A stretch of 64,000 nucleotides of DNA from Candidatus Woesearchaeota archaeon. Lineage in GTDB: Archaea; Nanobdellota; Nanobdellia; Pacearchaeales; GW2011-AR1. Numbering within the stretch: the stretch's first letter is position 1; every line of letters begins with the position of its first letter. The stretch is from assembly GCA_964447315.1 (NCBI GenBank), contig CAYURQ010000001.1, forward strand, positions 27,351 through 91,350. Reading direction: 5' to 3'. Shown here piece by piece: positions 27,911 to 59,861 of this stretch. Made by a program: the position numbers and the translations under genes. The notes under the pieces were generated by a model. It saw only the letters and a program-made list of their open reading frames with translations, ran no database searches and was not told the origin of the DNA.

Positions 27911-29068
27911 ATGGCGCAAGTTAAAATGCAAGCACCATTATTAGAAAATATTTTAGATGTTTCTAACTCATTTTACTTAGATACTTTAGGATATAAACCT
28001 GAGAGAACTTCTTTGCAAGAACTTCCTAAAGAAAGTTGGAGTAATCTTGCTAATGAAAGAGGTCTAAACACAAATTCATCTGGAGTATATTTTCCAAGAA
28101 ACCAATTAGCAGTAATAAAACAAGAGAATCCCTTGAGTTTATTTCATGAGTATTTTGGACATGGATTATATTGCGAACAAAGCTTAGATGGAAGAAAATT
28201 AGTTGAATTAGAAAAAAAGCTTTTAGAAAAAGAAAAAAACAGATTTAATGGATATGAATTTACTTTAAAGGAATTGCAGGAGTTTAGGATAGAAAATCCT
28301 ACATTTCAAGAATTAAATAGATTTAAAGAAGAAAACTTAGGAAAATATGAATTATTTGCCTTATGGACAGAATATTTATTGTCAAAAGAGAATAATATGC
28401 TTGGAGATTTTGAAAGAAGATATGATAATTTTTCAAGGAAAGATAAAGAAGTTATTGATTCTACAATAAACTTTTCAGAAAGTTATGGTAATTTAGCTGC
28501 TTTTTATGCTCAAGGAATGAGCAAAATAATGACCAAAGATAGAGTGACAAAATTAATCAAAGATATTTATAAAAAAGATTTAGATAAGATAAAATTTGCA
28601 TTAGTTTATGGTTCTAAAAAACCTTTTAGTGATATTGATGTATTTATGGTTGGCAAGGGAGCTCCTATTGAATCTCATACAGATTGGTTAGATGCAAAAT
28701 ACAAGAATACTGTAGAATTTCAAAATGGATTAAGAAATTTTGATGTAAGAATAAGTGTTCCTTTAATGAATGGGGAATTTTTATTTGGAGATGAAGAATA
28801 TTTCGAAAAATCAAAACAAAAAATACTCTCTCAACCTATTACTGAAAAATCGATAAAATACAATCTGAGATGGTCTTCTAGAATGCAAAGATTGAAAGAA
28901 GAAAATCAAGAAAATGAATTTTTAAGAAAAAAATTTAAAGGATACAGTCTTACTTATATTAATAATGCATTGGCTTTAAGAAAAGGAAAAAGAATCTTTA
29001 CTAAAGAAGGTTTGCTTTCATATTCGCCTAGCGAAAGTAACACAGAATTAAAAGGAGGAAAAGCATAA
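27911..29068 (+). CDS. nucleotidyltransferase-domain protein (385 aa)
   Basis: Central YGSKKPFSDIDVFMVG matches the polymerase-beta-like nucleotidyltransferase GS...DxD motif. Rest unknown. First gene of a tightly coupled three-gene operon. Confidence 0.4.
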   Translation: MAQVKMQAPLLENILDVSNSFYLDTLGYKPERTSLQELPKESWSNLANERGLNTNSSGVYFPRNQLAVIKQENPLSLFHEYFGHGLYCEQSLDGRKLVELEKKLLEKEKNRFNGYEFTLKELQEFRIENPTFQELNRFKEENLGKYELFALWTEYLLSKENNMLGDFERRYDNFSRKDKEVIDSTINFSESYGNLAAFYAQGMSKIMTKDRVTKLIKDIYKKDLDKIKFALVYGSKKPFSDIDVFMVGKGAPIESHTDWLDAKYKNTVEFQNGLRNFDVRISVPLMNGEFLFGDEEYFEKSKQKILSQPITEKSIKYNLRWSSRMQRLKEENQENEFLRKKFKGYSLTYINNALALRKGKRIFTKEGLLSYSPSESNTELKGGKA

Positions 29069-29368
29069 ATGAAACTTGAACAAATGACTGGAGAAATTTC
29101 ACAAGCATCTCAAGGAAGGAGCAAATACTTCGTGGTTGGAGATTTAAGTTACTTGTCTGGATCTCATTTATATATGGCTGATGAACTATATATAAAGAAT
29201 TTTAGAGATGGAAGTATACTCCACATTCATGAAGTAGATGGTAGAATCACTGGTGCTAATATTAGGGGCACTAATGATTTAAGAGGGACTCCAATTAGCA
29301 ACTATCAAGCAACAATGTTAGATGTCTTGCCTGGAAGCTCTAGAACAATCATAAAAAACGGATCATAA
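29069..29368 (+). CDS. hypothetical protein (99 aa)
   Basis: Its start abuts the previous stop. No motif. Confidence 0.3.
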   Translation: MKLEQMTGEISQASQGRSKYFVVGDLSYLSGSHLYMADELYIKNFRDGSILHIHEVDGRITGANIRGTNDLRGTPISNYQATMLDVLPGSSRTIIKNGS

Positions 29369-29369
29369 A

Positions 29370-29612
29370 ATGGTTTCAGAAAAGCAGATTAAGCACGAGC
29401 TTATAGCCATATATTCTAATTATCTTTCCAGTAAAGAGGATAAAAAGAATAGAGAAAAAGGGTATAAGCTTTATACAAAGTATTTCAATGGTGCAGAAAC
29501 TCTTTTTAGAGAAAATGTGAGTACTGCAATTTGGCAAGCCTTTAATCTGTACGAAGGCAAACTAAAAGAATCCAATGCAAAAAAGATTCTTGAAGATCTT
29601 CGCAAGACTTAA
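29370..29612 (+). CDS. hypothetical protein (80 aa)
   Basis: Tightly coupled to the previous gene. No motif. Confidence 0.3.
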   Translation: MVSEKQIKHELIAIYSNYLSSKEDKKNREKGYKLYTKYFNGAETLFRENVSTAIWQAFNLYEGKLKESNAKKILEDLRKT

Positions 29613-30158: not shown

Positions 30159-30467
30159 TTAATAAGGTATCTTTTCACCTTCCCTAGAGCAATGCGTGCA
30201 ATTGCCTTCAAGACCACATTCTCCTCCAGAAAGCCTTAATCCTTGTCCAGGAGCATTATAATTTCCTTGATAATATCTACATCTTGGTTCAATAAGAAAT
30301 TCTTGCCATCCTCCTGAAGATCCAAGAGTGCTACGTCTAGATACTTTCATTCCCCCTCGAACTTCAACATCTTTTTCTTTAGAAGTGCAAGTGAATGGAT
30401 GATCATACTTTTCTCTTAAATTTTCCATTACTTCTTTAAGAACTGAATTTGAATATTCATAACTCAT
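30159..30467 (-). CDS. Cys/Gly-rich small protein, 'YDHPF' family, paralog 2 (103 aa from internal Met)
   Basis: The ORF-track ORF 30159..30590 overlaps paralog 1. Met42 (MSYEYSNS...KYDHPF) gives a protein co-linear with the upstream paralog. Conserved KYDHPFxC, FxIEPxCxYYxGxY and C-terminal CxxC. Confidence 0.45.
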   Translation of the reverse strand: MSYEYSNSVLKEVMENLREKYDHPFTCTSKEKDVEVRGGMKVSRRSTLGSSGGWQEFLIEPRCRYYQGNYNAPGQGLRLSGGECGLEGNCTHCSREGEKIPY

Positions 30468-30474
30468 TTTTAAA

Positions 30475-30783
30475 TTATACATTTCCTCCATCTGTTTCAC
30501 AGGCTCTGCAAACACTTTTTCCTGGTTTTCCACAAATTCCAGTGTCTCCTCCTGTATATCCTCCCCTATAATAACTACATTTTGGTTCAATAAAGAATTT
30601 TTGATATCCGCTATTACTAGGAGCTGATCCAGGATACCACCTAACAGTCATCCCTCTAACCCGCACCCCTATCTCCTGCGCTTTTTTACTCCCTCCCTTT
30701 GCAAGAATATTTAGATACCCACAAATAAACGGATGATCATATTTTTTTTCCAGATCCTTTTTTATTTCATTAACATCTGACAT
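30475..30783 (-). CDS. Cys/Gly-rich small protein, 'YDHPF' family, paralog 1 (102 aa)
   Basis: Paralogous to 30159..30467, with conserved motifs in the same order. Arranged in tandem on the same strand. Confidence 0.45.
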   Translation of the reverse strand: MSDVNEIKKDLEKKYDHPFICGYLNILAKGGSKKAQEIGVRVRGMTVRWYPGSAPSNSGYQKFFIEPKCSYYRGGYTGGDTGICGKPGKSVCRACETDGGNV

Positions 30784-30939: not shown

Positions 30940-31218
30940 ATGCCATTATTACAAAAAAGAAATCCAAATGCAAGGTCACCAACATTACAAACAGTATTGA
31001 TGGTTGAAAAATTCATTGAAGAAAATAGTGGAGAGTATAAAAAAACAGAATTGTTCAAAAAACTTCCTAGAAAAGTAATGTGGCAAACATTTCAAATAAT
31101 AGTGCAATATCTTGAAGAAAATTATAAAATAATTATTGGAAAGGATGGAATAGTAACCTACATATGGAATCCAAATTTCTATGAAAAAATTAAAGATAGG
31201 CCAGAGATAAAAATATGA
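30940..31218 (+). CDS. small conserved protein (92 aa), paralog of 59574..59861
   Basis: Shares SPTLxTVxMVE..IxENSGExKKT...KLPxKxMW...YLxE..KII...DG..TYIWNP with the 95-aa protein at 59574. Its stop overlaps the next start by 4 nt. Confidence 0.45.
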   Translation: MPLLQKRNPNARSPTLQTVLMVEKFIEENSGEYKKTELFKKLPRKVMWQTFQIIVQYLEENYKIIIGKDGIVTYIWNPNFYEKIKDRPEIKI

Positions 31219-31535
31219 AATCAAAGGTTGTTTTTGTTGATAATAGCCTAGAAAAAGCGTTTAATTCTCTTGATGAATCAGACCCTATTAAAAAAGCATT
31301 AATTAGGGCAATAAAAAATATTCAACAAGATCCAAAAGCTGGAAGGAGTGTTATAAAAAGAATGATTCCAGAGAGACTAATTAAGAAATATGGGATAAAT
31401 AACTTGATGATTTACAATTTGCCAAATGCATGGAGAATGTTATATTCAGTAACTACTTCTGGAGATATAGAATTGGTGGCTGTAATACTTGATTGGATGA
31501 ATCACAAGGACTATGAGAGATTATTCAAGTTTTAA
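31215..31535 (+). CDS. RelE/ParE (or YoeB)-like toxin candidate (106 aa)
   Basis: C-terminal WRMLYSVTTSGDIELVAVILDWMNHKDYERLF follows the RelE/YoeB pattern ([WY]R..Y.V....V.V..I..H..Y). Translationally coupled to the upstream small gene. Confidence 0.4.
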   Translation: MKSKVVFVDNSLEKAFNSLDESDPIKKALIRAIKNIQQDPKAGRSVIKRMIPERLIKKYGINNLMIYNLPNAWRMLYSVTTSGDIELVAVILDWMNHKDYERLFKF

Positions 31536-31832
31536 TTATTCTTCATCTTCCTCAAGAACTAGTAAACTAAGTAAAACAATTAATACTCCTGCTATTATAG
31601 AAATTACCCAGCTTAGCCAACCTAACTCTAGAGTCTTAAACTTAATTATTAAAAAACCTGCAATACCAAGCAATCCTATGAATATATAATCTTTTCGTAT
31701 TTTTTCTTTGATAATTGGGGCGTGTTCTGAAAATACATCAAGAATTCCAGTAACAATTACAACAACCAATAATATATTTAAGTTAAGATAAGTGCTAACA
31801 AGTCCTGCCCATATTTGTTCAATCAATAACAA
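31536..31832 (-). CDS. small 3-TM membrane protein, family A (98 aa)
   Basis: Three hydrophobic helices and an acidic C-terminus (LEEDEE). About 90% identical to 33542..33844 and to its copies in repeat 2. The last ~9 codons lie outside the repeat. Confidence 0.5.
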   Translation of the reverse strand: MLLIEQIWAGLVSTYLNLNILLVVVIVTGILDVFSEHAPIIKEKIRKDYIFIGLLGIAGFLIIKFKTLELGWLSWVISIIAGVLIVLLSLLVLEEDEE

Positions 31833-31937
31833 TATTAGATAAGTTACTAAGACTGTTTGAAAGATGTGATTTACTAGGGATGCGTTGTGTCTGTGGAAAA
31901 GGGAAAAGTTTATAGAATTTTAAATTATTATTAAAAC

Positions 31938-32324
31938 ATGGAAGAAAGAGATGTAATAATTAAGATTTATGATAAAAAAGAAGAAATTAATAAAATAATT
32001 AAAGAATTAAAAAAATATTCATTTGAAGATTACATTAAAACTGGCCATTATGAAATTTCTTTATTAACTAAAGGAACAGATGAAGATAAATTGAGAGAGA
32101 TTTATCCTAAATTTGATATTATAGAATTAATAGCATTGAGGAGGCATAAAAATGGTTATGAGAATTATGATGTTTATTATGAACTTGAAAAAGGAAATTA
32201 TGCTTTGTTTGCCATAAATCTAGAAGGTAAAAAACCTAAAATAGATAATGCATTTATAGCTAATAGAATATTCAAAAATTTCTTAAAATCTATGGTAAAA
32301 AGATATGGTAATAAAATGGTTTAA
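31938..32324 (+). CDS. hypothetical protein B (128 aa)
   Basis: Divergent from family-A gene, with a TATA-like TTTATAG about 30 nt upstream. No motif. Its stop overlaps the convergent DUF2283-like gene by 4 nt. Confidence 0.4.
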   Translation: MEERDVIIKIYDKKEEINKIIKELKKYSFEDYIKTGHYEISLLTKGTDEDKLREIYPKFDIIELIALRRHKNGYENYDVYYELEKGNYALFAINLEGKKPKIDNAFIANRIFKNFLKSMVKRYGNKMV

Positions 32325-32656
32325 TTAGTCATGCATTGCATAGGTATATTTGCTATAGGAATTTGTTTTATTCCTGCTTTTTCATCTTCTAATCCCACCC
32401 CAATAAATAATTGATCTCTGCTTGGTTTTACAATAAGATTTAATTTTTCAAAGTCTTTTATTTGTTGTATATTAAACCCTATTGCCTCAAGAAAATTAGA
32501 AAACTCTCTTACTTCTAAACTAACTACTTTTCCGTTTCCAGTAGTGCTAATAATAAAATCTCCAAAGCTAAAATTCTTCTTAACTTTCTCATTATCTTGA
32601 ATAGAAGCCACAATTAAGCTGTCTGTATTCTCATCATATTTAGAGACTTTTATCAT
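32321..32656 (-). CDS. DUF2283-like small protein (111 aa)
   Basis: N-terminal MIKVSKYDENTDSLIV...GKVVSLEV matches the DUF2283 pattern (M.i.YD.e.D.lyi...G.ivGiEi). Confidence 0.4.
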   Translation of the reverse strand: MIKVSKYDENTDSLIVASIQDNEKVKKNFSFGDFIISTTGNGKVVSLEVREFSNFLEAIGFNIQQIKDFEKLNLIVKPSRDQLFIGVGLEDEKAGIKQIPIANIPMQCMTN

Positions 32657-32756
32657 ATTTTATAATAATATTTTGTTTATTTATACCTTTCTATTCATCT
32701 TCTAGAGGCAAGTAAAACATATAAATCTTAATAAATAATTAAAACTCCTTTTCTTA

Positions 32757-33545
32757 ATGGGAATTGATTCATCTGAAGCAAATCAAATAATAAACGCTAT
32801 TGATTTTGTAAATCATCATTATGGAGGTTCTGCAAAAGTTACTGGAGAATTCTTTTGTAAAGACTGTAATGAGAAATTTCCTTCTGGAGAATTTCGTTAT
32901 GATAAAGGAGGGTATATTCCAGGGCCAGGTTTAATTAATTTGTCTTCTGAAAGGGCTGCATTTCCCCTTCATGAGTTTCATACTGTTCTTGCTTTAAAAG
33001 ATTCTGATGAGATCTATGAAAAAAGAGTGATTTTAGACTTATTTAATAAATCAAGAAACTGGAATTTTTATGATGTTCCAGAAAGATGCTTTGAGGATTA
33101 TATGAAAATAATGAAAACAAGCTCACTAATTTCTATTGCTAGTCTAGAAGCTAATCATTGGTGTTATTCACTTCATTCAACACCAGATTTTACAGAAGAA
33201 GAAATGCTGGAGGATCCTATTAAAAGGGATATTCTAGAAATGGATAGGAAGATTAATCTTAGGCCAAATAAATTAGAAAATGAGGTTAAACCAGAAATAA
33301 ATCGGGTTTTCAAAGACATAATTGGTAATAGAGAAATTCCAATAATTTATATTATTCCAGAAGAATTTAGAGGAGATTTTGGAGAGGAATATTATAAAAG
33401 GGATTTTATTGAAGCAACATACAATACTTTTAAAGCAAAGAACATACTTTTTCCAGATGAAAAAAGAAATTCTGTTATTAAAATAATTGATTCTTACTTT
33501 AAAGAAGCAGAATTAAAGCATGAAAGACACCCTTCTCCTTTTTAG
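32757..33545 (+). CDS. hypothetical protein D (262 aa)
   Basis: ORF. N-terminal CKDCNEKF and later Cys/His residues. No recognised domain. Confidence 0.4.
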   Translation: MGIDSSEANQIINAIDFVNHHYGGSAKVTGEFFCKDCNEKFPSGEFRYDKGGYIPGPGLINLSSERAAFPLHEFHTVLALKDSDEIYEKRVILDLFNKSRNWNFYDVPERCFEDYMKIMKTSSLISIASLEANHWCYSLHSTPDFTEEEMLEDPIKRDILEMDRKINLRPNKLENEVKPEINRVFKDIIGNREIPIIYIIPEEFRGDFGEEYYKRDFIEATYNTFKAKNILFPDEKRNSVIKIIDSYFKEAELKHERHPSPF

Positions 33546-33844
33546 GATTCTTCATCCTCTTCTAAAACAAGTAAACTAAGTAAAACAATTAATACTCCTG
33601 CAACAAGAGATATTACCCATGACAACCATCCTAATTCTAGTGTTTTAAACTTGATTATCAGGAAACCTGCAATACCAAGCAATCCTATAAATATGTAATC
33701 TTTAGGTTTTATTTTTTCTTTAATAATTGGAGCGTGTTCTGAAAATACATCAAGAATTCCAGTAACAATTACAACAACTAATAAGATATTTAAGTTAAGA
33801 TAAGTGCTAACAAGTCCTGCCCATATTTGCTCAATTAATAACAA
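33542..33844 (-). CDS. small 3-TM membrane protein, family A' (100 aa)
   Basis: Paralog of 31536..31832 within the same repeat copy. Upstream region also similar. Confidence 0.5.
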   Translation of the reverse strand: MLLIEQIWAGLVSTYLNLNILLVVVIVTGILDVFSEHAPIIKEKIKPKDYIFIGLLGIAGFLIIKFKTLELGWLSWVISLVAGVLIVLLSLLVLEEDEES

Positions 33845-33960
33845 TATTAGATAAGTTACTAAGACTGTTTGAAAGGTGTGATTTACTAGGGATGTGTTGT
33901 GTCCACGGAATAGGAGGTGTTGGAGTGAGGGTTTGGGAATGTTGATAGGATTATTTTAAT

Positions 33961-34602
33961 TTATATAGAAGAATTAATATCTCCATGCACTACTAATGAT
34001 TGATAATTTTCAAATAAGAAAGGGGCATAAAATTGGGCTTCTGGAAAATCTTTAGTTGTACTTAGATACCAAATATTCTCTTCCATTTTATCTTTAGCTC
34101 TTTCAACTGACTTTTCTATAGTAGAACCTTCTATTAATGCTTTAACAAGGATATTTGAGGGTTCTAAAAATAATTTTGCTATTTTATCTCTTCTTGGAGA
34201 TGCCTCCTGATTAGGATCTTTCCCAAGATTAAAATCTCTCTCATATCCAATAAAACAAATGGCTCCTTTAGTAACTATTATCTTCCCTAGTTTTTGTCCT
34301 GATGAACAAGTTAGGGAATAAACAACCATGCCTGAAAGAACTTTTGCATTTTCTTTAGAGATTATTATCTCATTTTTATGCCCAGCAATCAAATCAGGAT
34401 TACCATGCCCATTAAACATAATAAAATCTGGTTTTTGCTTTTTTATAATTTTTAAGATTTCTTTTTTATTTGCTTTTTCTCTTTCCCTATTTATTGTTTT
34501 GTTTCCTCTTTCTTTCGAATATTTAACTAATTCTTTACTATAATAATATAAATAAGAGAGGGTCCCATCATGCTCGGGTCTGGAAAAAATAATATTACTC
34601 AT
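33961..34602 (-). CDS. putative minimal caspase/hemoglobinase-fold protease-like protein (His/Cys dyad)
   Basis: 213 aa. FIMFNGHGNPDLIAGH (His followed by Gly, like the caspase SHG motif), then about 33 residues later YSLTCSSGQ (Cys followed by small residues, like QACRG / DACHSG). An N-terminal beta-strand IIFSRPEHDG. Last gene of the operon G-F-E. Confidence 0.3.
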   Translation of the reverse strand: MSNIIFSRPEHDGTLSYLYYYSKELVKYSKERGNKTINREREKANKKEILKIIKKQKPDFIMFNGHGNPDLIAGHKNEIIISKENAKVLSGMVVYSLTCSSGQKLGKIIVTKGAICFIGYERDFNLGKDPNQEASPRRDKIAKLFLEPSNILVKALIEGSTIEKSVERAKDKMEENIWYLSTTKDFPEAQFYAPFLFENYQSLVVHGDINSSI

Positions 34603-34604
34603 AA

Positions 34605-34841
34605 TTATTGTTTTACTAAAAAACCTCTTTTGAAAGCTTTAAGATAGTTTAATTGGATTTCAACTATTCTATTTCCAATATCTGTATTATCTTCTATGTT
34701 TTTTATCAACTCATCTCTTTTCATAAATTTTCCATCAGACATTCCAAATGAAACACTTACATTTGGGGAAGCCTGCCTAATTCTTTCTATGACTATTTCT
34801 TTCTTTAACTGATCTATATTCTCTTGTTTATTTTCTTTCAT
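34605..34841 (-). CDS. hypothetical protein F (78 aa)
   Basis: Middle gene of the operon. Overlaps the upstream gene by 4 nt (ATGA). Confidence 0.35.
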   Translation of the reverse strand: MKENKQENIDQLKKEIVIERIRQASPNVSVSFGMSDGKFMKRDELIKNIEDNTDIGNRIVEIQLNYLKAFKRGFLVKQ

Positions 34842-35020
34842 ATTATTTCTAACTCTTTTAGTATTTTTAATATTTTCTCTCCATTTTCTGTCTTATTCTT
34901 TATTTCTTGGTAAGCAAGATTCCAACTTATTGGATTTTTATCTATAATTACTATTGTATTGTTTCTTTCTTTTATAGGCACTCCAGAATAAACTTTAAAG
35001 AAATCTTCTTCATTTACCAT
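34838..35020 (-). CDS. hypothetical protein G (60 aa)
   Basis: First gene of the G-F-E operon. Confidence 0.3.
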   Translation of the reverse strand: MVNEEDFFKVYSGVPIKERNNTIVIIDKNPISWNLAYQEIKNKTENGEKILKILKELEII

Positions 35021-35203
35021 TATTAAATTAGTAAATTAATCTTTTTAATTTTTGTCATTTCTTTTTCCTCGGCTTATTCCAATAAGGACTTTGGGGTTTC
35101 ATGAAACACTGAAGAGAAAAGGATATTTAAATGCTGTTTTTTGGAGTGTGGGTAAAACAATTCATCTTAATCTATATATTTTTTAATTAATGATTCTATA
35201 ATT

Positions 35204-35464
35204 TTAATTATACACTTTATCTCTTTTATCAATTTTTACTATCAAAATTATTTTCTGAGCTTCTTTAATTTTATATAATGCTCTAAAGTACCCAATTCTA
35301 TACCTAAAAACCATCTCATTATTATCTCTCCCAATAAACTTTGAATCACTTGGTACAGGAGTATTTTCAAGGTTTTTTAATCTCTTTTCAATCCTTTCTC
35401 TTTCTTTGGTATCTAATTTGTTTAAAAAATCCTGGGCTTTAACAGACAGCTCTACAGAATACAT
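35204..35464 (-). CDS. RelE/ParE-family toxin (86 aa)
   Basis: MVFRYRIGYFRALYKI...IILIVKIDKRDKVY is the classic RelE/ParE C-terminal signature. Confidence 0.6.
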   Translation of the reverse strand: MYSVELSVKAQDFLNKLDTKERERIEKRLKNLENTPVPSDSKFIGRDNNEMVFRYRIGYFRALYKIKEAQKIILIVKIDKRDKVYN

Positions 35465-35465
35465 T

Positions 35466-35627
35466 TTACAGTCTCTTTGTTCTGCCTTCTTTTAAATCTT
35501 CTTCAGCTTGATTTAAAGAGTTTATGTCGTCTTGGGTTAGAGTTACATCTATTATGTGCTCCTTTAAAGAATCCATATCTTTTTTTAAATTGTCTAGTTT
35601 ACTTATGATTAATTCTTCGTTTTCCAT
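35466..35627 (-). CDS. putative antitoxin (53 aa), not in ORF track
   Basis: My reverse-complement translation gives MENEELIISKLDNLKKDMDSLKEHIIDVTLTQDDINSLNQAEEDLKEGRTKRL. Its stop lies 2 nt before the RelE ATG, the typical antitoxin-toxin arrangement. Confidence 0.45.
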   Translation of the reverse strand: MENEELIISKLDNLKKDMDSLKEHIIDVTLTQDDINSLNQAEEDLKEGRTKRL

Positions 35628-35781
35628 ATCTTCCAATATAAAAATAACTATATAATCTTTTCGTATTTTTTATTTTTCATAAGGGGTGTTGGTTGGAGCA
35701 TTTTAGGGAGTATTGTAAATTAAAAAAAAAGAAATAATTAGCAGAACAATCAAAAAAAATTAGAAAAGATATGGAAAGAAT

Positions 35782-36189
35782 CTACAAAATTTCTTTTAAA
35801 TAATTAGATAAATTTAAATCCCTAATTTCTTGTTTTCTTAACCATTTATAATCTTCATGTTCTTTACTTAACTTAACATTCTCTGGTTTTTCATGAGTTT
35901 TTAATATATATATTATTCTTAAAAGATGAACTTTTTTCCCTTGTTTCTCATATTCTTTACTTAATATTCTATAGATTGAAACTATTTCTGTATCGAGACT
36001 TGTTTCTTCCTTAACTTCTCTAAGTACAGCTTCAGAAGGATCTTCTCCAAATTCAACTCTTCCTCCAGGAATTTCCCATTCTCGAGAACCATCTACTTCT
36101 TTTGAATTTCTTTTAAGAAAAAGAAACTTATCTTGTATCTGAATCAATCCATTTGCTAAAATATTTGTTTTTTTCTTAATTTCTGACAT
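35782..36189 (-). CDS. NUDIX hydrolase
   Basis: 135 aa. Nudix box GGRVEFGEDPSEAVLREVKEETSL (Gx5Ex7REVxEExG). Sits in the unique 544-bp spacer between the two repeat copies. Confidence 0.8.
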   Translation of the reverse strand: MSEIKKKTNILANGLIQIQDKFLFLKRNSKEVDGSREWEIPGGRVEFGEDPSEAVLREVKEETSLDTEIVSIYRILSKEYEKQGKKVHLLRIIYILKTHEKPENVKLSKEHEDYKWLRKQEIRDLNLSNYLKEIL

Positions 36190-36224
36190 GTTTTAATAAA
36201 AGAATACATTTTATTTAAGGTTTT

Positions 36225-36527
36225 CTAATCTTGTTGTTCACCTTCTTCTAAAACAAGCAAACTAAGTAAAACAATTAATACTCCTGCTATTATAGAAATT
36301 ACCCAGCTTAGCCAACCTAACTCTAGAGTCTTAAACTTAATTATTAAAAAACCTGCAATACCAAGCAATCCTATGAATATATAATCTTTTCGTATTTTTT
36401 CTTTGATAATTGGGGCGTGTTCTGAAAATACATCAAGAATTCCAGTAACAATTACAACAACCAATAATATATTTAAGTTAAGATAAGTGCTAACAAGTCC
36501 TGCCCATATTTGTTCAATCAATAACAA
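36225..36527 (-). CDS. small 3-TM membrane protein, family A (copy 2; C-terminus differs outside the repeat)
   Basis: Identical to 31536..31832 except for the last residues (EEGEQQD). Confidence 0.5.
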   Translation of the reverse strand: MLLIEQIWAGLVSTYLNLNILLVVVIVTGILDVFSEHAPIIKEKIRKDYIFIGLLGIAGFLIIKFKTLELGWLSWVISIIAGVLIVLLSLLVLEEGEQQD

Positions 36528-36632
36528 TATTAGATAAGTTACTAAGACTGTTTGAAAGATGTGATTTACTAGGGATGCGTTGTGTCTGTGGAAAAGGGAA
36601 AAGTTTATAGAATTTTAAATTATTATTAAAAC

Positions 36633-37019
36633 ATGGAAGAAAGAGATGTAATAATTAAGATTTATGATAAAAAAGAAGAAATTAATAAAATAATTAAAGA
36701 ATTAAAAAAATATTCATTTGAAGATTACATTAAAACTGGCCATTATGAAATTTCTTTATTAACTAAAGGAACAGATGAAGATAAATTGAGAGAGATTTAT
36801 CCTAAATTTGATATTATAGAATTAATAGCATTGAGGAGGCATAAAAATGGTTATGAGAATTATGATGTTTATTATGAACTTGAAAAAGGAAATTATGCTT
36901 TGTTTGCCATAAATCTAGAAGGTAAAAAACCTAAAATAGATAATGCATTTATAGCTAATAGAATATTCAAAAATTTCTTAAAATCTATGGTAAAAAGATA
37001 TGGTAATAAAATGGTTTAA
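36633..37019 (+). CDS. hypothetical protein B (copy 2)
   Basis: Identical to 31938..32324. Confidence 0.4.
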   Translation: MEERDVIIKIYDKKEEINKIIKELKKYSFEDYIKTGHYEISLLTKGTDEDKLREIYPKFDIIELIALRRHKNGYENYDVYYELEKGNYALFAINLEGKKPKIDNAFIANRIFKNFLKSMVKRYGNKMV

Positions 37020-37351
37020 TTAGTCATGCATTGCATAGGTATATTTGCTATAGGAATTTGTTTTATTCCTGCTTTTTCATCTTCTAATCCCACCCCAATA
37101 AATAATTGATCTCTGCTTGGTTTTACAATAAGATTTAATTTTTCAAAGTCTTTTATTTGTTGTATATTAAACCCTATTGCCTCAAGAAAATTAGAAAACT
37201 CTCTTACTTCTAAACTAACTACTTTTCCGTTTCCAGTAGTGCTAATAATAAAATCTCCAAAGCTAAAATTCTTCTTAACTTTCTCATTATCTTGAATAGA
37301 AGCCACAATTAAGCTGTCTGTATTCTCATCATATTTAGAGACTTTTATCAT
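37016..37351 (-). CDS. DUF2283-like protein (copy 2)
   Basis: Identical to 32321..32656. Confidence 0.4.
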   Translation of the reverse strand: MIKVSKYDENTDSLIVASIQDNEKVKKNFSFGDFIISTTGNGKVVSLEVREFSNFLEAIGFNIQQIKDFEKLNLIVKPSRDQLFIGVGLEDEKAGIKQIPIANIPMQCMTN

Positions 37352-37451
37352 ATTTTATAATAATATTTTGTTTATTTATACCTTTCTATTCATCTTCTAG
37401 AGGCAAGTAAAACATATAAATCTTAATAAATAATTAAAACTCCTTTTCTTA

Positions 37452-38240
37452 ATGGGAATTGATTCATCTGAAGCAAATCAAATAATAAACGCTATTGATT
37501 TTGTAAATCATCATTATGGAGGTTCTGCAAAAGTTACTGGAGAATTCTTTTGTAAAGACTGTAATGAGAAATTTCCTTCTGGAGAATTTCGTTATGATAA
37601 AGGAGGGTATATTCCAGGGCCAGGTTTAATTAATTTGTCTTCTGAAAGGGCTGCATTTCCCCTTCATGAGTTTCATACTGTTCTTGCTTTAAAAGATTCT
37701 GATGAGATCTATGAAAAAAGAGTGATTTTAGACTTATTTAATAAATCAAGAAACTGGAATTTTTATGATGTTCCAGAAAGATGCTTTGAGGATTATATGA
37801 AAATAATGAAAACAAGCTCACTAATTTCTATTGCTAGTCTAGAAGCTAATCATTGGTGTTATTCACTTCATTCAACACCAGATTTTACAGAAGAAGAAAT
37901 GCTGGAGGATCCTATTAAAAGGGATATTCTAGAAATGGATAGGAAGATTAATCTTAGGCCAAATAAATTAGAAAATGAGGTTAAACCAGAAATAAATCGG
38001 GTTTTCAAAGACATAATTGGTAATAGAGAAATTCCAATAATTTATATTATTCCAGAAGAATTTAGAGGAGATTTTGGAGAGGAATATTATAAAAGGGATT
38101 TTATTGAAGCAACATACAATACTTTTAAAGCAAAGAACATACTTTTTCCAGATGAAAAAAGAAATTCTGTTATTAAAATAATTGATTCTTACTTTAAAGA
38201 AGCAGAATTAAAGCATGAAAGACACCCTTCTCCTTTTTAG
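37452..38240 (+). CDS. hypothetical protein D (copy 2)
   Basis: Identical to 32757..33545. Confidence 0.4.
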   Translation: MGIDSSEANQIINAIDFVNHHYGGSAKVTGEFFCKDCNEKFPSGEFRYDKGGYIPGPGLINLSSERAAFPLHEFHTVLALKDSDEIYEKRVILDLFNKSRNWNFYDVPERCFEDYMKIMKTSSLISIASLEANHWCYSLHSTPDFTEEEMLEDPIKRDILEMDRKINLRPNKLENEVKPEINRVFKDIIGNREIPIIYIIPEEFRGDFGEEYYKRDFIEATYNTFKAKNILFPDEKRNSVIKIIDSYFKEAELKHERHPSPF

Positions 38241-38539
38241 GATTCTTCATCCTCTTCTAAAACAAGTAAACTAAGTAAAACAATTAATACTCCTGCAACA
38301 AGAGATATTACCCATGACAACCATCCTAATTCTAGTGTTTTAAACTTGATTATCAGGAAACCTGCAATACCAAGCAATCCTATAAATATGTAATCTTTAG
38401 GTTTTATTTTTTCTTTAATAATTGGAGCGTGTTCTGAAAATACATCAAGAATTCCAGTAACAATTACAACAACTAATAAGATATTTAAGTTAAGATAAGT
38501 GCTAACAAGTCCTGCCCATATTTGCTCAATTAATAACAA
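38237..38539 (-). CDS. small 3-TM membrane protein A' (copy 2)
   Basis: Identical to 33542..33844. Confidence 0.5.
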   Translation of the reverse strand: MLLIEQIWAGLVSTYLNLNILLVVVIVTGILDVFSEHAPIIKEKIKPKDYIFIGLLGIAGFLIIKFKTLELGWLSWVISLVAGVLIVLLSLLVLEEDEES

Positions 38540-38655
38540 TATTAGATAAGTTACTAAGACTGTTTGAAAGGTGTGATTTACTAGGGATGTGTTGTGTCCA
38601 CGGAATAGGAGGTGTTGGAGTGAGGGTTTGGGAATGTTGATAGGATTATTTTAAT

Positions 38656-39297
38656 TTATATAGAAGAATTAATATCTCCATGCACTACTAATGATTGATA
38701 ATTTTCAAATAAGAAAGGGGCATAAAATTGGGCTTCTGGAAAATCTTTAGTTGTACTTAGATACCAAATATTCTCTTCCATTTTATCTTTAGCTCTTTCA
38801 ACTGACTTTTCTATAGTAGAACCTTCTATTAATGCTTTAACAAGGATATTTGAGGGTTCTAAAAATAATTTTGCTATTTTATCTCTTCTTGGAGATGCCT
38901 CCTGATTAGGATCTTTCCCAAGATTAAAATCTCTCTCATATCCAATAAAACAAATGGCTCCTTTAGTAACTATTATCTTCCCTAGTTTTTGTCCTGATGA
39001 ACAAGTTAGGGAATAAACAACCATGCCTGAAAGAACTTTTGCATTTTCTTTAGAGATTATTATCTCATTTTTATGCCCAGCAATCAAATCAGGATTACCA
39101 TGCCCATTAAACATAATAAAATCTGGTTTTTGCTTTTTTATAATTTTTAAGATTTCTTTTTTATTTGCTTTTTCTCTTTCCCTATTTATTGTTTTGTTTC
39201 CTCTTTCTTTCGAATATTTAACTAATTCTTTACTATAATAATATAAATAAGAGAGGGTCCCATCATGCTCGGGTCTGGAAAAAATAATATTACTCAT
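38656..39297 (-). CDS. putative caspase-fold His/Cys protein (copy 2)
   Basis: Identical to 33961..34602. Confidence 0.3.
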   Translation of the reverse strand: MSNIIFSRPEHDGTLSYLYYYSKELVKYSKERGNKTINREREKANKKEILKIIKKQKPDFIMFNGHGNPDLIAGHKNEIIISKENAKVLSGMVVYSLTCSSGQKLGKIIVTKGAICFIGYERDFNLGKDPNQEASPRRDKIAKLFLEPSNILVKALIEGSTIEKSVERAKDKMEENIWYLSTTKDFPEAQFYAPFLFENYQSLVVHGDINSSI

Positions 39298-39299
39298 AA

Positions 39300-39536
39300 T
39301 TATTGTTTTACTAAAAAACCTCTTTTGAAAGCTTTAAGATAGTTTAATTGGATTTCAACTATTCTATTTCCAATATCTGTATTATCTTCTATGTTTTTTA
39401 TCAACTCATCTCTTTTCATAAATTTTCCATCAGACATTCCAAATGAAACACTTACATTTGGGGAAGCCTGCCTAATTCTTTCTATGACTATTTCTTTCTT
39501 TAACTGATCTATATTCTCTTGTTTATTTTCTTTCAT
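39300..39536 (-). CDS. hypothetical protein F (copy 2)
   Basis: Identical to 34605..34841. Confidence 0.35.
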   Translation of the reverse strand: MKENKQENIDQLKKEIVIERIRQASPNVSVSFGMSDGKFMKRDELIKNIEDNTDIGNRIVEIQLNYLKAFKRGFLVKQ

Positions 39537-39715
39537 ATTATTTCTAACTCTTTTAGTATTTTTAATATTTTCTCTCCATTTTCTGTCTTATTCTTTATTT
39601 CTTGGTAAGCAAGATTCCAACTTATTGGATTTTTATCTATAATTACTATTGTATTGTTTCTTTCTTTTATAGGCACTCCAGAATAAACTTTAAAGAAATC
39701 TTCTTCATTTACCAT
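39533..39715 (-). CDS. hypothetical protein G (copy 2)
   Basis: Identical to 34838..35020. Confidence 0.3.
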   Translation of the reverse strand: MVNEEDFFKVYSGVPIKERNNTIVIIDKNPISWNLAYQEIKNKTENGEKILKILKELEII

Positions 39716-39898
39716 TATTAAATTAGTAAATTAATCTTTTTAATTTTTGTCATTTCTTTTTCCTCGGCTTATTCCAATAAGGACTTTGGGGTTTCATGAA
39801 ACACTGAAGAGAAAAGGATATTTAAATGCTGTTTTTTGGAGTGTGGGTAAAACAATTCATCTTAATCTATATATTTTTTAATTAATGATTCTATAATT

Positions 39899-40159
39899 TT
39901 AATTATACACTTTATCTCTTTTATCAATTTTTACTATCAAAATTATTTTCTGAGCTTCTTTAATTTTATATAATGCTCTAAAGTACCCAATTCTATACCT
40001 AAAAACCATCTCATTATTATCTCTCCCAATAAACTTTGAATCACTTGGTACAGGAGTATTTTCAAGGTTTTTTAATCTCTTTTCAATCCTTTCTCTTTCT
40101 TTGGTATCTAATTTGTTTAAAAAATCCTGGGCTTTAACAGACAGCTCTACAGAATACAT
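39899..40159 (-). CDS. RelE/ParE-family toxin (copy 2)
   Basis: Identical to 35204..35464. Confidence 0.6.
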   Translation of the reverse strand: MYSVELSVKAQDFLNKLDTKERERIEKRLKNLENTPVPSDSKFIGRDNNEMVFRYRIGYFRALYKIKEAQKIILIVKIDKRDKVYN

Positions 40160-40160
40160 T

Positions 40161-40322
40161 TTACAGTCTCTTTGTTCTGCCTTCTTTTAAATCTTCTTCA
40201 GCTTGATTTAAAGAGTTTATGTCGTCTTGGGTTAGAGTTACATCTATTATGTGCTCCTTTAAAGAATCCATATCTTTTTTTAAATTGTCTAGTTTACTTA
40301 TGATTAATTCTTCGTTTTCCAT
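40161..40322 (-). CDS. putative antitoxin (copy 2)
   Basis: Identical to 35466..35627. Confidence 0.45.
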   Translation of the reverse strand: MENEELIISKLDNLKKDMDSLKEHIIDVTLTQDDINSLNQAEEDLKEGRTKRL

Positions 40323-40591
40323 ATCTTCCAATATAAAAATAACTATATAATCTTTTCGTATTTTTTATTTTTCATAAGGGGTGTTGGTTGGAGCATTTTA
40401 GGGAGTATTGGGGGAGGAAGGGAAAAGTAGATAAATATTCATTAAACAATAATATCACAATGAGAAAAAGTTTATATATCCCGCATTGTTTGATAAATTA
40501 TGAGAGTAAAATGGGGGGTGAATGTATTTTCTGAAAGATAGTTTTATAAATATAATTAAATCTCTCTTTTATAAAGATTTTAAGTAAAAAA

Positions 40592-41429: not shown

Positions 41430-41575
41430 TTTGTTTAATCAAACTAAATTTAAAAATATATAGCAAGATTAAAGAATTTTTTATTTTCCATAGGGGGTGT
41501 TGGTTGGAGCATTTGGGGGAGTGTTTGGAGGGAGAGAGGGAAAAGTAGATAAATGTTAAAACAATCTCTTTTTTT

Positions 41576-44149: not shown

Positions 44150-44632
44150 CTAAGAATAATGAGATATCCTATTTCTATCTTCTATTGAATAATCCCTTTC
44201 TTCTTGAGGTGGTTCATAGTGAGATTCATTTTTATTTTCAGGCTCGTCTTTTTCAGTAAGAACCATCCAGCTTAATAAAATAATAATTAATCCTCCTAGT
44301 ATTGCAATTGCATAACCAATCCAACCTAAATCTTTTAACTTAAGATAAATAATTCCTGCTCCTAATATTCCTAAAATAATTATGAAAACTTTGTCTTTCC
44401 ATGTTATTGGCTTTTCTTTTTGTTTCTTTATTTTTGGAGGAAAAATAATGCTTATTGCTCCAACAATGATTACTGCAAACATGAACCAATTAATATTAAT
44501 CAAGGAATCAATTGTTGTTTGATAAAATTCTCTTAATAACAAGGTAATTAAAAACAAGAACAACAATATTTGAAATGTTGTGTGAAATATGTGCTTCACA
44601 TGTTCTATTATTATTTTTTGTTTTCTGTTCAT
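44150..44632 (-). CDS. membrane protein related to the family-A small membrane proteins
   Basis: 160 aa. The C-terminal half (LGILGAGIIYLKLKDLGWIGYAIAILGGLIIILLSWMVLTEKDE) parallels family A (LLGIAGFLIIKFKTLELGWLSWVISIIAGVLIVLLSLLVLEEDEE). Confidence 0.4.
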   Translation of the reverse strand: MNRKQKIIIEHVKHIFHTTFQILLFLFLITLLLREFYQTTIDSLININWFMFAVIIVGAISIIFPPKIKKQKEKPITWKDKVFIIILGILGAGIIYLKLKDLGWIGYAIAILGGLIIILLSWMVLTEKDEPENKNESHYEPPQEERDYSIEDRNRISHYS

Positions 44633-46413: not shown

Positions 46414-46718
46414 AATTATCAAAACCATTCCAAGTTTAAATGTATTACTATGATAATATACTCACATAAATTTATAAACTATATATATCTATAATATATT
46501 ACTATGAGTAACTACAAACCCAAAACAAGATATTGTTCTAAGTGCCTTCAGAGTATAGATGAAACCAAAGATGATTATGTTATGTTAATTAGTAAAACAG
46601 GGCAAAAAATTAAAGAATTTTTTATTTTCCATAGGGGGTGTTGGTTGGAGCATTTTAGGGAGTATTATCAATTAAACAAAAAGAAATAATTTAAATAGAA
46701 TATTTAGTATCTCTTATT

Positions 46719-56063: not shown

Positions 56064-56450
56064 TTACTCCTTATTGCCTATTGGTCCTTTAAAAATATCT
56101 TTAATTTCTTGAATGGCGAATTGAAGTTTTCCTTGGTGGCTTGGATCTTTGCTATCTAGGTAGTAACTAAGCATTTGGTATCTGTGCTTTGCAGCATTAA
56201 TTACATAATTAACTCCTGCACTTCCTCCATCTTTGAAGTATAAATCAAATATTTGTTCTTCAGGATTACTTGGGGTCGGGATATTGTATCTTTGGAAGAA
56301 TAAAGGGTCTTTTTGCACTATTTCACTTGTTTCTTTTTTAATTATATAAGATAATGAAGGGGTTTTTTCATCAAATACTTGAAATCCTGCTTGTTTAAGT
56401 CTTTCATTAACTTGTTTCATAAATTCTTTTCTTTGTTCTGGGTTTGTCAT
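56064..56450 (-). CDS. small protein (128 aa), paralog of 57971..58318
   Basis: Shares an identical core (VNERLKQAGFQVFDEKTPSLSYIIKKETSEIVQKDPLFFQR) with the 115-aa ORF at 57971. Confidence 0.45.
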   Translation of the reverse strand: MTNPEQRKEFMKQVNERLKQAGFQVFDEKTPSLSYIIKKETSEIVQKDPLFFQRYNIPTPSNPEEQIFDLYFKDGGSAGVNYVINAAKHRYQMLSYYLDSKDPSHQGKLQFAIQEIKDIFKGPIGNKE

Positions 56451-56551
56451 GTAAATATATTCTTAATTTATGTATATAAATGTTATGTTTTGTTGTAATT
56501 TAGAAGTGGTGGTATTATGGTAAGGTTTAATCTTATTTAATAGGGGAATTA

Positions 56552-57970: not shown

Positions 57971-58318
57971 TTATTTTAATAAAAAGAATCCGGCATTACA
58001 TAGGTATTTTGTTACTTTTCCATAATCTGGGTAGTATAAATCAAATATTTTTTCTTCTGGGTTGTTTGGAATGCTTAAATTATGTCTTTGGAAGAATAAA
58101 GGGTCTTTTTGCACTATTTCACTTGTTTCTTTTTTAATTATATAAGATAATGAAGGGGTTTTTTCATCAAATACTTGAAATCCTGCTTGTTTAAGTCTTT
58201 CATTAACTTTTTTCATATATTTTTCTTTTTCTTGTTGTTTCATGTAAATATATGCTTGATTTATGTATTTAAATGTTATGTTTTTGTTGTAATTTAGTAG
58301 TGACAAGTTTATCTCCAT
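57971..58318 (-). CDS. small protein (115 aa), diverged/truncated paralog of 56064..56450
   Basis: Identical central 43 aa, with different N- and C-termini. Confidence 0.35.
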   Translation of the reverse strand: MEINLSLLNYNKNITFKYINQAYIYMKQQEKEKYMKKVNERLKQAGFQVFDEKTPSLSYIIKKETSEIVQKDPLFFQRHNLSIPNNPEEKIFDLYYPDYGKVTKYLCNAGFFLLK

Positions 58319-58477
58319 GTGGTTGGAATATTTTAAGAGAATTAGAGGTTGTTGGAGTTAATTGTGGGTTGGAATATGTTGATAGGATGTTTTGGGATTG
58401 TTGGGGGTGTTTTATGTGGATTTATTTTACCCCTACAAAATAGGAAGATTTATAAATATGTGGGGGTAAATATATTT

Positions 58478-59428: not shown

Positions 59429-59573
59429 TTAATATTGATTTTTGTTATTATTTTATATTTACAAGATTATAGAGGATTAGGGTTGTTAGGGTTAATTTGG
59501 GGTTGGAATATGTTGAGAGGATGGTACATTTTGTAATACAAATATTTATAAACCTATCAATTGATATGTATAT

Positions 59574-59861
59574 ATGGAATTAAAATCAATTAATAGAAAT
59601 AAGAAAGTTGCAAAAATATTTAGATCTCCTACTTTAGAAACTGTAAAAATGGTAGAGAGAACAATAAAAGAAAATAGTGGAGAATTTAAGAAAACCCAAA
59701 TTTGGGAGAAATTACCAAAAAAAATAATGTGGCCGACTTATTTAACTATTTTAAATTATCTTCAAGAGATAAATAAAATAATAATGGAAGAAGACGGAGA
59801 GATTACTTATATTTGGAACCCAGAATTGTTAAAGAAAGTAATGAACCGAAAAAGATATTAA
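59574..59861 (+). CDS. small conserved protein (95 aa), paralog of 30940..31218
   Basis: Conserved blocks shared with the 92-aa protein at 30940. Preceded by a G/T-rich element. Confidence 0.45.
   Translation: MELKSINRNKKVAKIFRSPTLETVKMVERTIKENSGEFKKTQIWEKLPKKIMWPTYLTILNYLQEINKIIMEEDGEITYIWNPELLKKVMNRKRY

Follow-up and report, generated by a model that had tools for sequence, protein, structure and literature searches.

Organization of the repeated locus

The 64,000-nucleotide stretch of contig CAYURQ010000001.1 (assembly GCA_964447315.1, Candidatus Woesearchaeota archaeon) analyzed here, which is referred to as the window throughout, contains a multi-gene block of about 4 kb that is present twice in direct orientation, with a gene for a NUDIX hydrolase between the two copies. 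The window has a G+C content of approximately 27%, contains no N characters and begins with the genes for archaeal RNA polymerase, elongation factor 2 (EF-2) and EF-1alpha. The closest relatives of its genes were found in metagenome-assembled genomes (MAGs) labelled Woesearchaeota, Pacearchaeota or Nanoarchaeota. A direct string comparison of positions 31564–35715 with positions 36259–40410, which lie at an offset of 4,695, revealed 0 mismatches over the full 4,152 bp. An exact repeat of 4 kb within 64 kb at 27% G+C cannot be attributed to chance, and the G+C content of the block was the same as that of its surroundings. A preliminary description of this DNA had reported apparently perfect repeats of 4151 bp around a 544-bp spacer; the identity was confirmed, and the lengths were corrected to 4,152 bp and 543 bp. 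That description had also found the ORF (open reading frame) translations to be identical between the copies and the spacer to be unique and to carry a NUDIX gene, and both statements agree with our results, as ten ORFs with identical translations were present in each copy. The main components of the locus are as follows:

31564–35715, no strand: copy 1 of the exact repeat, the probable donor; its left tail, in a gene of the 3TM family, and its right flank, of the alpha type of element D3 (both described below), are each continuous with their own family type
35716–36258, 543 bp: the spacer between the copies, unique, with 0 31-mers in common with the rest of the window
35782–36189, minus strand: NUDIX hydrolase gene (135 aa), the single ORF of the spacer, with Pfam, PADLOC and PHROGs matches
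36259–40410, no strand: copy 2 of the exact repeat, the probable recipient, hybrid at both ends

The spacer protein contained a NUDIX domain, as evident from its matches to Pfam NUDIX PF00293 (64.8 bits, E 1e-17) and phrog_1198 (6e-22). It also matched the PADLOC candidate model PDC-S07 (2e-19), and we regard it as a generic NUDIX protein. A nearly canonical Nudix box, GRVEFGEDPSEAVLREVKEETSL, could be read directly in the sequence; it follows the pattern GX5EX7REVXEEXSL, with a serine in place of the final glycine.

The left edge lies in a family of 3TM miniproteins

The left edge of copy 1 was located within a gene, A1, at a distance of 28 nt from its 3' end; A1 encodes a protein of approximately 100 residues with three hydrophobic segments (three-transmembrane, 3TM). 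Three 3TM genes are central to the structure of the repeat:

31536–31832, minus strand: 3TM miniprotein A1, which holds the left edge of copy 1
33542–33844, minus strand: 3TM miniprotein B, with its copy-2 counterpart B' at 38237–38539
36225–36527, minus strand: 3TM miniprotein A2, chimeric, with a C-terminal tail of its own (ending in EEGEQQD) on a body identical to that of A1

B showed 96% protein identity and approximately 90% DNA identity to A1. The codon differences between A and B comprised 22 synonymous and 3 nonsynonymous changes, which indicates that these are real genes under selection. The two paralogous 3TM miniproteins per copy that had been proposed earlier were thus recovered, with three hydrophobic segments each. 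The identity between A and B was not uniform along the genes, with 94.5% over the 5' half and the upstream region and 83% over the 3' half, a gradient that, judged from the alignment, appears conversion-like.

To the left of the exact repeat, the two copies were homologous but diverged. Over the approximately 28 nt that precede each copy, which correspond to the C-terminal tail of the 3TM gene, the sequences were still about 70% alike, with A1 ending in LEEDEE and A2 in LEEGEQQD. The A2 tail (36225–36258) represented a third type, which resembled the tail of B more closely than that of A1. Because the A2 tail has diverged from the A1 tail while the A2 body is identical to that of A1, A2 is a chimera of its own tail and the A1 body. 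Within 13 kb of the window, the 3TM family has at least five members: the four genes A1, A2, B and B', and the C-terminal half of g160 (44150–44632), which is a distant relative with approximately 33–35% identity.

The right edge lies in the intergenic repeat D3

The right edge of the repeat was found inside an intergenic element of approximately 52 nt, which we termed D3, with the consensus GAATTTTTTATTTTYCATARGGGGTGTTGGTTGGAGCATTTKRGGGAGTRTT. D3 was present in four copies, all on the plus strand and within 11 kb, whereas none would be expected by chance. The element consists of a T-rich stretch followed by a G/T-rich core. The four copies differ in their left halves (types L1 and L2) and in their right flanks (types alpha and beta):

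35663–35714, plus strand: D3 at the right edge of copy 1, L1 with the alpha flank
40358–40409, plus strand: D3 at the right edge of copy 2, L1 with the beta flank, hybrid
41474–41525, plus strand: independent D3, L2 with the beta flank, between a PIN-like gene and g289
46615–46666, plus strand: independent D3, L2 with the alpha flank, between g402 and a polysaccharide-synthesis gene

The L1 halves begin at 35663 and 40358 and the L2 halves at 41474 and 46615, while the alpha flanks begin at 35716 and 46668 and the beta flanks at 40411 and 41527. The left and right halves therefore occur in all four combinations, and D3 is a recombinant, mosaic family. In particular, the alpha core and alpha flank of the copy-1 D3 recurred at the independent D3 at 46615, while the copy-2 D3 consisted of a copy-1-type core joined to a beta flank. 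From this recurrence it follows that the arrangement in copy 1 is native and that in copy 2 is hybrid.

D3 had no match in Rfam, its fold energies on either strand were no better than those of shuffled sequence, and its core was not found in JGI metagenome contigs, IMG/VR or any of the related loci that were fetched. D3 was therefore rejected as an RNA gene or a widespread element and is a lineage-specific intergenic repeat. As a guess, it might act as a promoter or regulatory element between divergent genes.

Probable origin of the repeat

Both ends of copy 2 are hybrid and both ends of copy 1 are native, which argues that copy 1 was the donor and that the recipient site carried a 3TM paralogue and a beta-type D3. 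A simple tandem duplication was excluded, since a period of 4,695 requires that the 543 bp after each copy match each other, and these segments differ. Because the spacer between the copies is unique, the arrangement calls for a double crossover, for gene conversion or for two events in succession. Two identical copies were present, as a duplication mediated by recombination demands, and their breakpoints lie in pre-existing homology with hybrid junctions. The explanation to which we incline, as the probable one, is a recent non-tandem segmental duplication via homologous recombination, with copy 1 as the donor, in a variable region of a DPANN (Woesearchaeota/Pacearchaeota-like) genome. What we infer from these observations is that sequence passed from copy 1 to copy 2, that it did so by recombination, and that the duplication exists in the cell, beyond the assembly; its reality in the cell we regard as fairly probable in itself. 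The preliminary description had offered a very recent duplication, ongoing gene conversion or an assembly artefact, and among these the anatomy of the edges favours recombination.

In the mechanism that we propose, the recipient site would have been located nearby and would already have held a 3TM paralogue on its left and a beta-type D3 on its right. The sequence of copy 1 would then have been pasted into this site by a double crossover or by gene conversion, with the 3TM gene and D3 serving as homology arms. The same arrangement might also have been reached in two steps, if 3TM paralogues underwent an unequal crossover and a deletion between D3 copies came afterwards. Copy 2 would have ended up with a chimeric 3TM gene on one side and a chimeric D3 on the other, and the NUDIX gene would have remained in the interval between the two copies.

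Several points weigh against this segmental duplication. One of the presumed homology arms, D3, is short (approximately 50 nt). The source is a 104-kb (104,207-bp) NCBI MAG contig that was probably assembled from short reads, which are unable to span 4.15 kb. An assembler that resolves loops would produce the path of flank, block, NUDIX spacer, block and flank from the graph topology alone, and a mis-join in the graph would also place the edges of the repeat in repeated sequences.

If it is real, the duplication is an ordinary kind of event. It would mean that, even in very small DPANN genomes, short dispersed repeats drive recent duplications of several genes, and that the hot spots of recombination in variable regions include a lineage-specific repeat of approximately 52 nt and a family of miniprotein genes. 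This would be useful for understanding genome plasticity in DPANN symbionts and would not constitute a new principle. A literature search returned nothing relevant on segmental duplication in DPANN.

Alternative explanations of the repeat

The strongest competitor of the segmental duplication is an assembly artefact, in which the genome has the block once or in a different arrangement, and the contig path runs through it twice owing to spurious links or a loop that the 3TM paralogues and D3 introduce into a short-read graph. We consider this explanation unlikely, although it has to be taken seriously. The window matched three Logan contigs of run SRR7048221 exactly, except at positions 31818 and 31824, where the Logan contig shows the paralogous 3TM variant, as expected of a popped bubble. 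This match indicates that the MAG and the run hold the same strain and that the assembly is probably based on short reads. The Logan contigs end where the 31-mer graph of the window itself predicts, at the 3TM paralogues and at D3: L001 and L002 correspond exactly to the unitigs that should lie between repeats, and L003 crosses predicted branch points because the paralogue bubbles were popped. An artefact would accord with these breaks, with the position of both edges in multi-copy sequence and with the occurrence of the protease operon of the block (described below) only once in each of the 33 related loci. Re-use of one graph edge would also give 100% identity over 4 kb.

Other features of the sequence speak against a mis-assembly. 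The four right flanks that follow D3 (those of the NUDIX gene, g84, g289 and the polysaccharide gene) need four left partners, and a single-copy block leaves one of these missing. The exact sharing amounts to 32–47 nt among independent D3 copies and to approximately 21 nt between the copy-1-type and the independent beta-type D3, which is too short to confuse assemblers with k≥55. The assembler kept the approximately 90%-identical paralogues A and B correctly apart, and the 100% identity of A2 to A1 is therefore unlikely to have arisen from collapsed paralogues. For the artefactual path to exist, real k-mers would also have to connect each end of the spacer with the block. Counting copies from the SRR7048221 Logan contigs was tried and rejected, as these contigs break at repeats, are simplified and carry no copy-number information. 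The spacer NUDIX protein is on record from the NCBI contig only and not from Logan; since EF-2 and other unique genes are likewise missing from Logan, the absence of the NUDIX protein there is uninformative. If the repeat were an artefact after all, it would serve as a caution for gene-copy counts that are based on MAGs.

A further explanation is ongoing gene conversion, in which two long-standing, diverged cassettes were homogenised by a recent conversion tract of 4.15 kb. It differs from the segmental duplication only in what was overwritten. The diverged homology that continues past the left edge, the conversion-like identity gradient between A and B and the mosaic nature of the D3 family would all fit such a history. 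On the other side, we found no trace of an older second cassette, as only the tail of approximately 28 nt of the 3TM gene and the D3 flank are homologous outside the exact tract, and two cassettes were present in no related genome examined. Because the homology outside the tract is restricted to these two features, the recipient may have been a lone 3TM gene with a D3. Conversion of a full older cassette appears improbable on this evidence.

The least probable alternative is a mobile or episomal origin: the block could be a transposon or integrative element that inserted twice, or a circle of 4,695 bp (block and NUDIX gene) could have integrated by a single crossover or could coexist with a chromosomal copy. 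The topology of block, spacer and block is that expected of a Campbell-type integration or of a circle and a chromosomal copy, the block contains a putative toxin-antitoxin pair of a kind typical of plasmids, and direct D3 repeats flank the unit of the spacer and copy 2. However, no transposase, integrase or recognisable replication protein was found among the proteins scanned at approximately 26.6–48.5 kb (the block with Pfam, NCBIfam and PHROGs, the flanks with Pfam and PADLOC), in line with the earlier statement that integrase and transposase genes are lacking. At the block, only chance-level AT-rich inverted matches were found in place of terminal inverted repeats; no target-site duplication was visible at the edges, where the flanks differ, and no tRNA gene that could have served as a target was found. 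A blastn search of plasmid and phage collections gave no match, IMG/VR contained no relative, the PHROGs matches were restricted to RelE and NUDIX, and the genes of the block do not travel together in other genomes. A known prophage or insertion-sequence structure, which the preliminary description had named as an outcome that would refute it, was not found in these scans for mobility genes, inverted repeats and phage or plasmid similarity.

Gene content of the block

Rather than a conserved cassette, the block is a patchwork of small modules that are independent of one another. Apart from the 3TM genes and the protease operon, it contains the following genes, with the positions in copy 2 given in parentheses:

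31938–32324 (36633–37019), plus strand: g128, orphan gene (128 aa) with no family above threshold, absent from related loci
32321–32656 (37016–37351), minus strand: g111 (111 aa), DUF2283-like only transitively, by BLASTP to a DUF2283 member
32757–33545 (37452–38240), plus strand: g262, orphan gene (262 aa) with four homologues
35204–35464 (39899–40159), minus strand: RelE/ParE-family toxin (86 aa), matched in Pfam and PHROGs
35466–35636 (40161–40331), minus strand: putative antitoxin (53–56 aa), proposed from position and size

The g262 protein had four homologues among 5.8 billion proteins, and these were found in unrelated contexts. The RelE/ParE family was assigned to the toxin from its matches to Pfam ParE_toxin PF05016 (6e-7; 30.3 bits against a cut-off of 23) and to the RelE-like phrog_1213 (5e-14). 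The ORF located 1 nt upstream on the same strand had no family match and is the putative antitoxin by its position and size. The preliminary description had named RelE with its antitoxin, and a toxin with a small partner gene upstream is in line with this. The DUF2283-like protein of that description was supported in part: g111 had no direct match to DUF2283 (PF10049) in Pfam even at E≤10, and BLASTP aligned it with a Pacearchaeota protein (L016:2412-2846; E 6e-10, 28% identity over 87 aa) that itself belongs to DUF2283 (25.4 bits against a cut-off of 23).

The profile searches of the block proteins against defence-system and family models that had been proposed earlier were thus carried out, and RelE/ParE matched above threshold, while DUF2283 and PADLOC gave no direct match. 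PADLOC-DB 2.0 returned 0 matches for all block proteins, and the matches in the flanks had E-values of approximately 0.003–0.004. The proposed defence or abortive-infection island is therefore not supported by any PADLOC match within the block, the only such match being that of the spacer NUDIX protein to a candidate model. By analogy with CHAT and caspase-like defence proteases, it may be hypothesized that the block acts as a defence or abortive-infection module.

The g60-g78-g213 operon and its candidate protease

Three genes of the block form an operon that runs on the minus strand from 35020 down to 33961:

34838–35020 (copy 2, 39533–39715), minus strand: g60, small partner, first gene of the operon
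34605–34841 (copy 2, 39300–39536), minus strand: g78, small helical partner, middle gene
33961–34602 (copy 2, 38656–39297), minus strand: g213, candidate minimal clan-CD (gingipain/CHAT/caspase-fold) cysteine peptidase, last gene

The g60 and g78 genes overlap by 4 nt and the gap between g78 and g213 is 2 nt, and the operon genes are translationally coupled. We found 192 homologues of g213 of uniform length, with identities of 47–78% among the 120 matches listed. A profile search revealed 1,893 representatives of 50%-identity clusters at E≤1e-3, 243 of them at E≤1e-30, again with a uniform length of approximately 215 aa. The g213 protein belonged to no Pfam family, Peptidase_C25 being matched only below threshold (16.6 bits against a cut-off of 23), and the profile of the g213 family had no match among PDB sequences.

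The AlphaFold2 model of g213, with a predicted local distance difference test (pLDDT) score of 95.8, showed a caspase-haemoglobinase fold. His66, in the motif FNGHG, and Cys99 were invariant in 38 sequences. In the model, these two residues follow the consecutive core strands 60–64 and 93–97, which corresponds to the catalytic order of histidine and then cysteine. The predicted fold and the invariant H66 and C99 thus bear out the earlier proposal of a His/Cys caspase-fold candidate at the end of a three-gene operon, and g213 is, on the basis of this model, a candidate minimal stand-alone clan-CD cysteine peptidase.

The partner g78 is conserved, small and helical, and g60 is likewise conserved; no informative structural neighbour was found for g78. 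That g60 and g78 might be paralogues was considered and rejected, as BLASTP gave no alignment between them. A literature search returned nothing relevant on caspases in DPANN or gingipains in Woesearchaeota. One could suppose that g60, g78 and g213 form an undescribed three-component system of DPANN, in which g60 and g78 would control the protease or be cleaved by it in a switch resembling toxin-antitoxin or abortive-infection systems, and that the duplication is real and reflects recent selection for dosage in a genome that sheds DNA; we rate this combined proposal as rather unlikely. The lasting value of the analysis lies in its by-product, a protein family without a Pfam model, for which a caspase/gingipain fold is predicted with confidence and which has two obligate tiny partners; this makes it a concrete experimental target.

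The operon and the block in related genomes

To compare the locus with its relatives, we used 33 related loci from Woese-, Pace-, Nano-, Micr- and Iainarchaeota. In all 33, g213 followed the small partners in the same order, and the operon was present a single time in each. The two partners were both detectable in 31 of the 33 loci; one locus had no detectable g78 and another no detectable g60. None of the other block genes was found beside the operon in these loci. The cassette that the preliminary description had treated as a unit thus dissolves in other genomes, where only the three-gene operon recurs, and the comparison of single and double copies that it had suggested shows a single operon in each locus and the whole block in none.

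The identity of g213 to two relatives was 71–80%, compared with 75% for RpoA', 71% for EF-1alpha, 48% for SMC, 46% for RNase HII and 55% for primase. By these identities, the operon is as conserved as RpoA' and EF-1alpha and more conserved than SMC, RNase HII and primase. The neighbours of the operon were heterogeneous, the commonest being minimal nucleotidyltransferases (6 of 143). Others were winged helix-turn-helix regulators, RadC, NYN, HEPN and DUF2283 proteins, as well as housekeeping genes. The combination of heterogeneous, toxin-antitoxin-rich neighbours with high conservation indicates that the operon is an ancient, strongly constrained DPANN module in variable surroundings. In one relative (L008), the operon was found between primase and SMC, opposite to the side of SMC that it occupies in the window, and its position is therefore not syntenic despite the common housekeeping neighbours. 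The synteny of a JGI contig that encodes a 90%-identical HIT protein also differed from that of the window.

Neighbouring genes

The variable region at 26.6–46.7 kb, which is rich in orphan and toxin-antitoxin genes, adjoins the RNase HII and SMC genes. Just upstream of copy 1, g92 and g106 (30940–31535) share 4 nt, and g106 gave a weak match to ParE (E 0.019); the two genes probably form a toxin-antitoxin pair. The g92/g106 pair recurs beside the protease operon in three other genomes (L018, L020 and L034), twice in L018, and a paralogue of g92 with 57% identity was found at 59622–59849. Further upstream, g143 and g102 (30159–30783, minus strand) overlap; they are Cys/Gly-rich paralogues with 32% identity and no family match. 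At 27911–29612, g385 showed a weak match to Polbeta nucleotidyltransferases (E 0.008) and the adjacent g80 a weak match to a CARF_HEPN model (E 0.004); these two genes may represent a degenerate pair of the minimal nucleotidyltransferase (MNT)/HEPN kind.

Short dispersed direct repeats with 85–88% identity were present farther downstream, between 56222–56491 and 58018–58284 and between 58347–58389 and 59481–59523. The repeats extend over the 5' ends of small minus-strand genes and the sequences that precede them. A G/T-rich repeat of 43 nt was also present. This part of the genome is generally rich in small paralogous repeats.

Comparison with known systems

The toxin gene of the block resembles type II RelE/ParE modules, as its 86-aa product scores above the Pfam threshold and it lies 1 nt downstream of a same-strand gene for a protein of approximately 55 aa. 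It differs from them in that its antitoxin belongs to no known family, and the module is one passenger of a duplicated block. Composite transposons and integrative elements share with the locus the direct repeats (D3 and the 3TM genes) that bracket gene blocks in a variable region, whereas the block has no transposase or integrase, inverted repeats, target-site duplication or tRNA attachment site.

Among the clan CD peptidases (gingipains of MEROPS family C25, SAVED-CHAT, TPR-CHAT/Csx29, separase and metacaspases), the g213 candidate would stand apart in several respects. With only approximately 213 aa it is small, and it lacks sensor, pro-, Ig-like and TPR domains. Its score is below the Pfam C25 threshold; it has no PDB relative at the level of sequence and is a candidate member on the basis of its sequence and model. 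In addition, it always follows the tiny g60 and g78, neither of which resembles a known partner.

The closest parallel to the locus as a whole is recombination-mediated segmental duplication or gene conversion between dispersed repeats. The case described here differs from it in the unique 543-bp spacer, owing to which the arrangement is not tandem, in the small DPANN host and in the length of one homology arm (approximately 50 nt). The two are alike in a multi-gene direct repeat with 100% identity, in breakpoints within homologous sequence, in hybrid junctions and in having no mobility genes.

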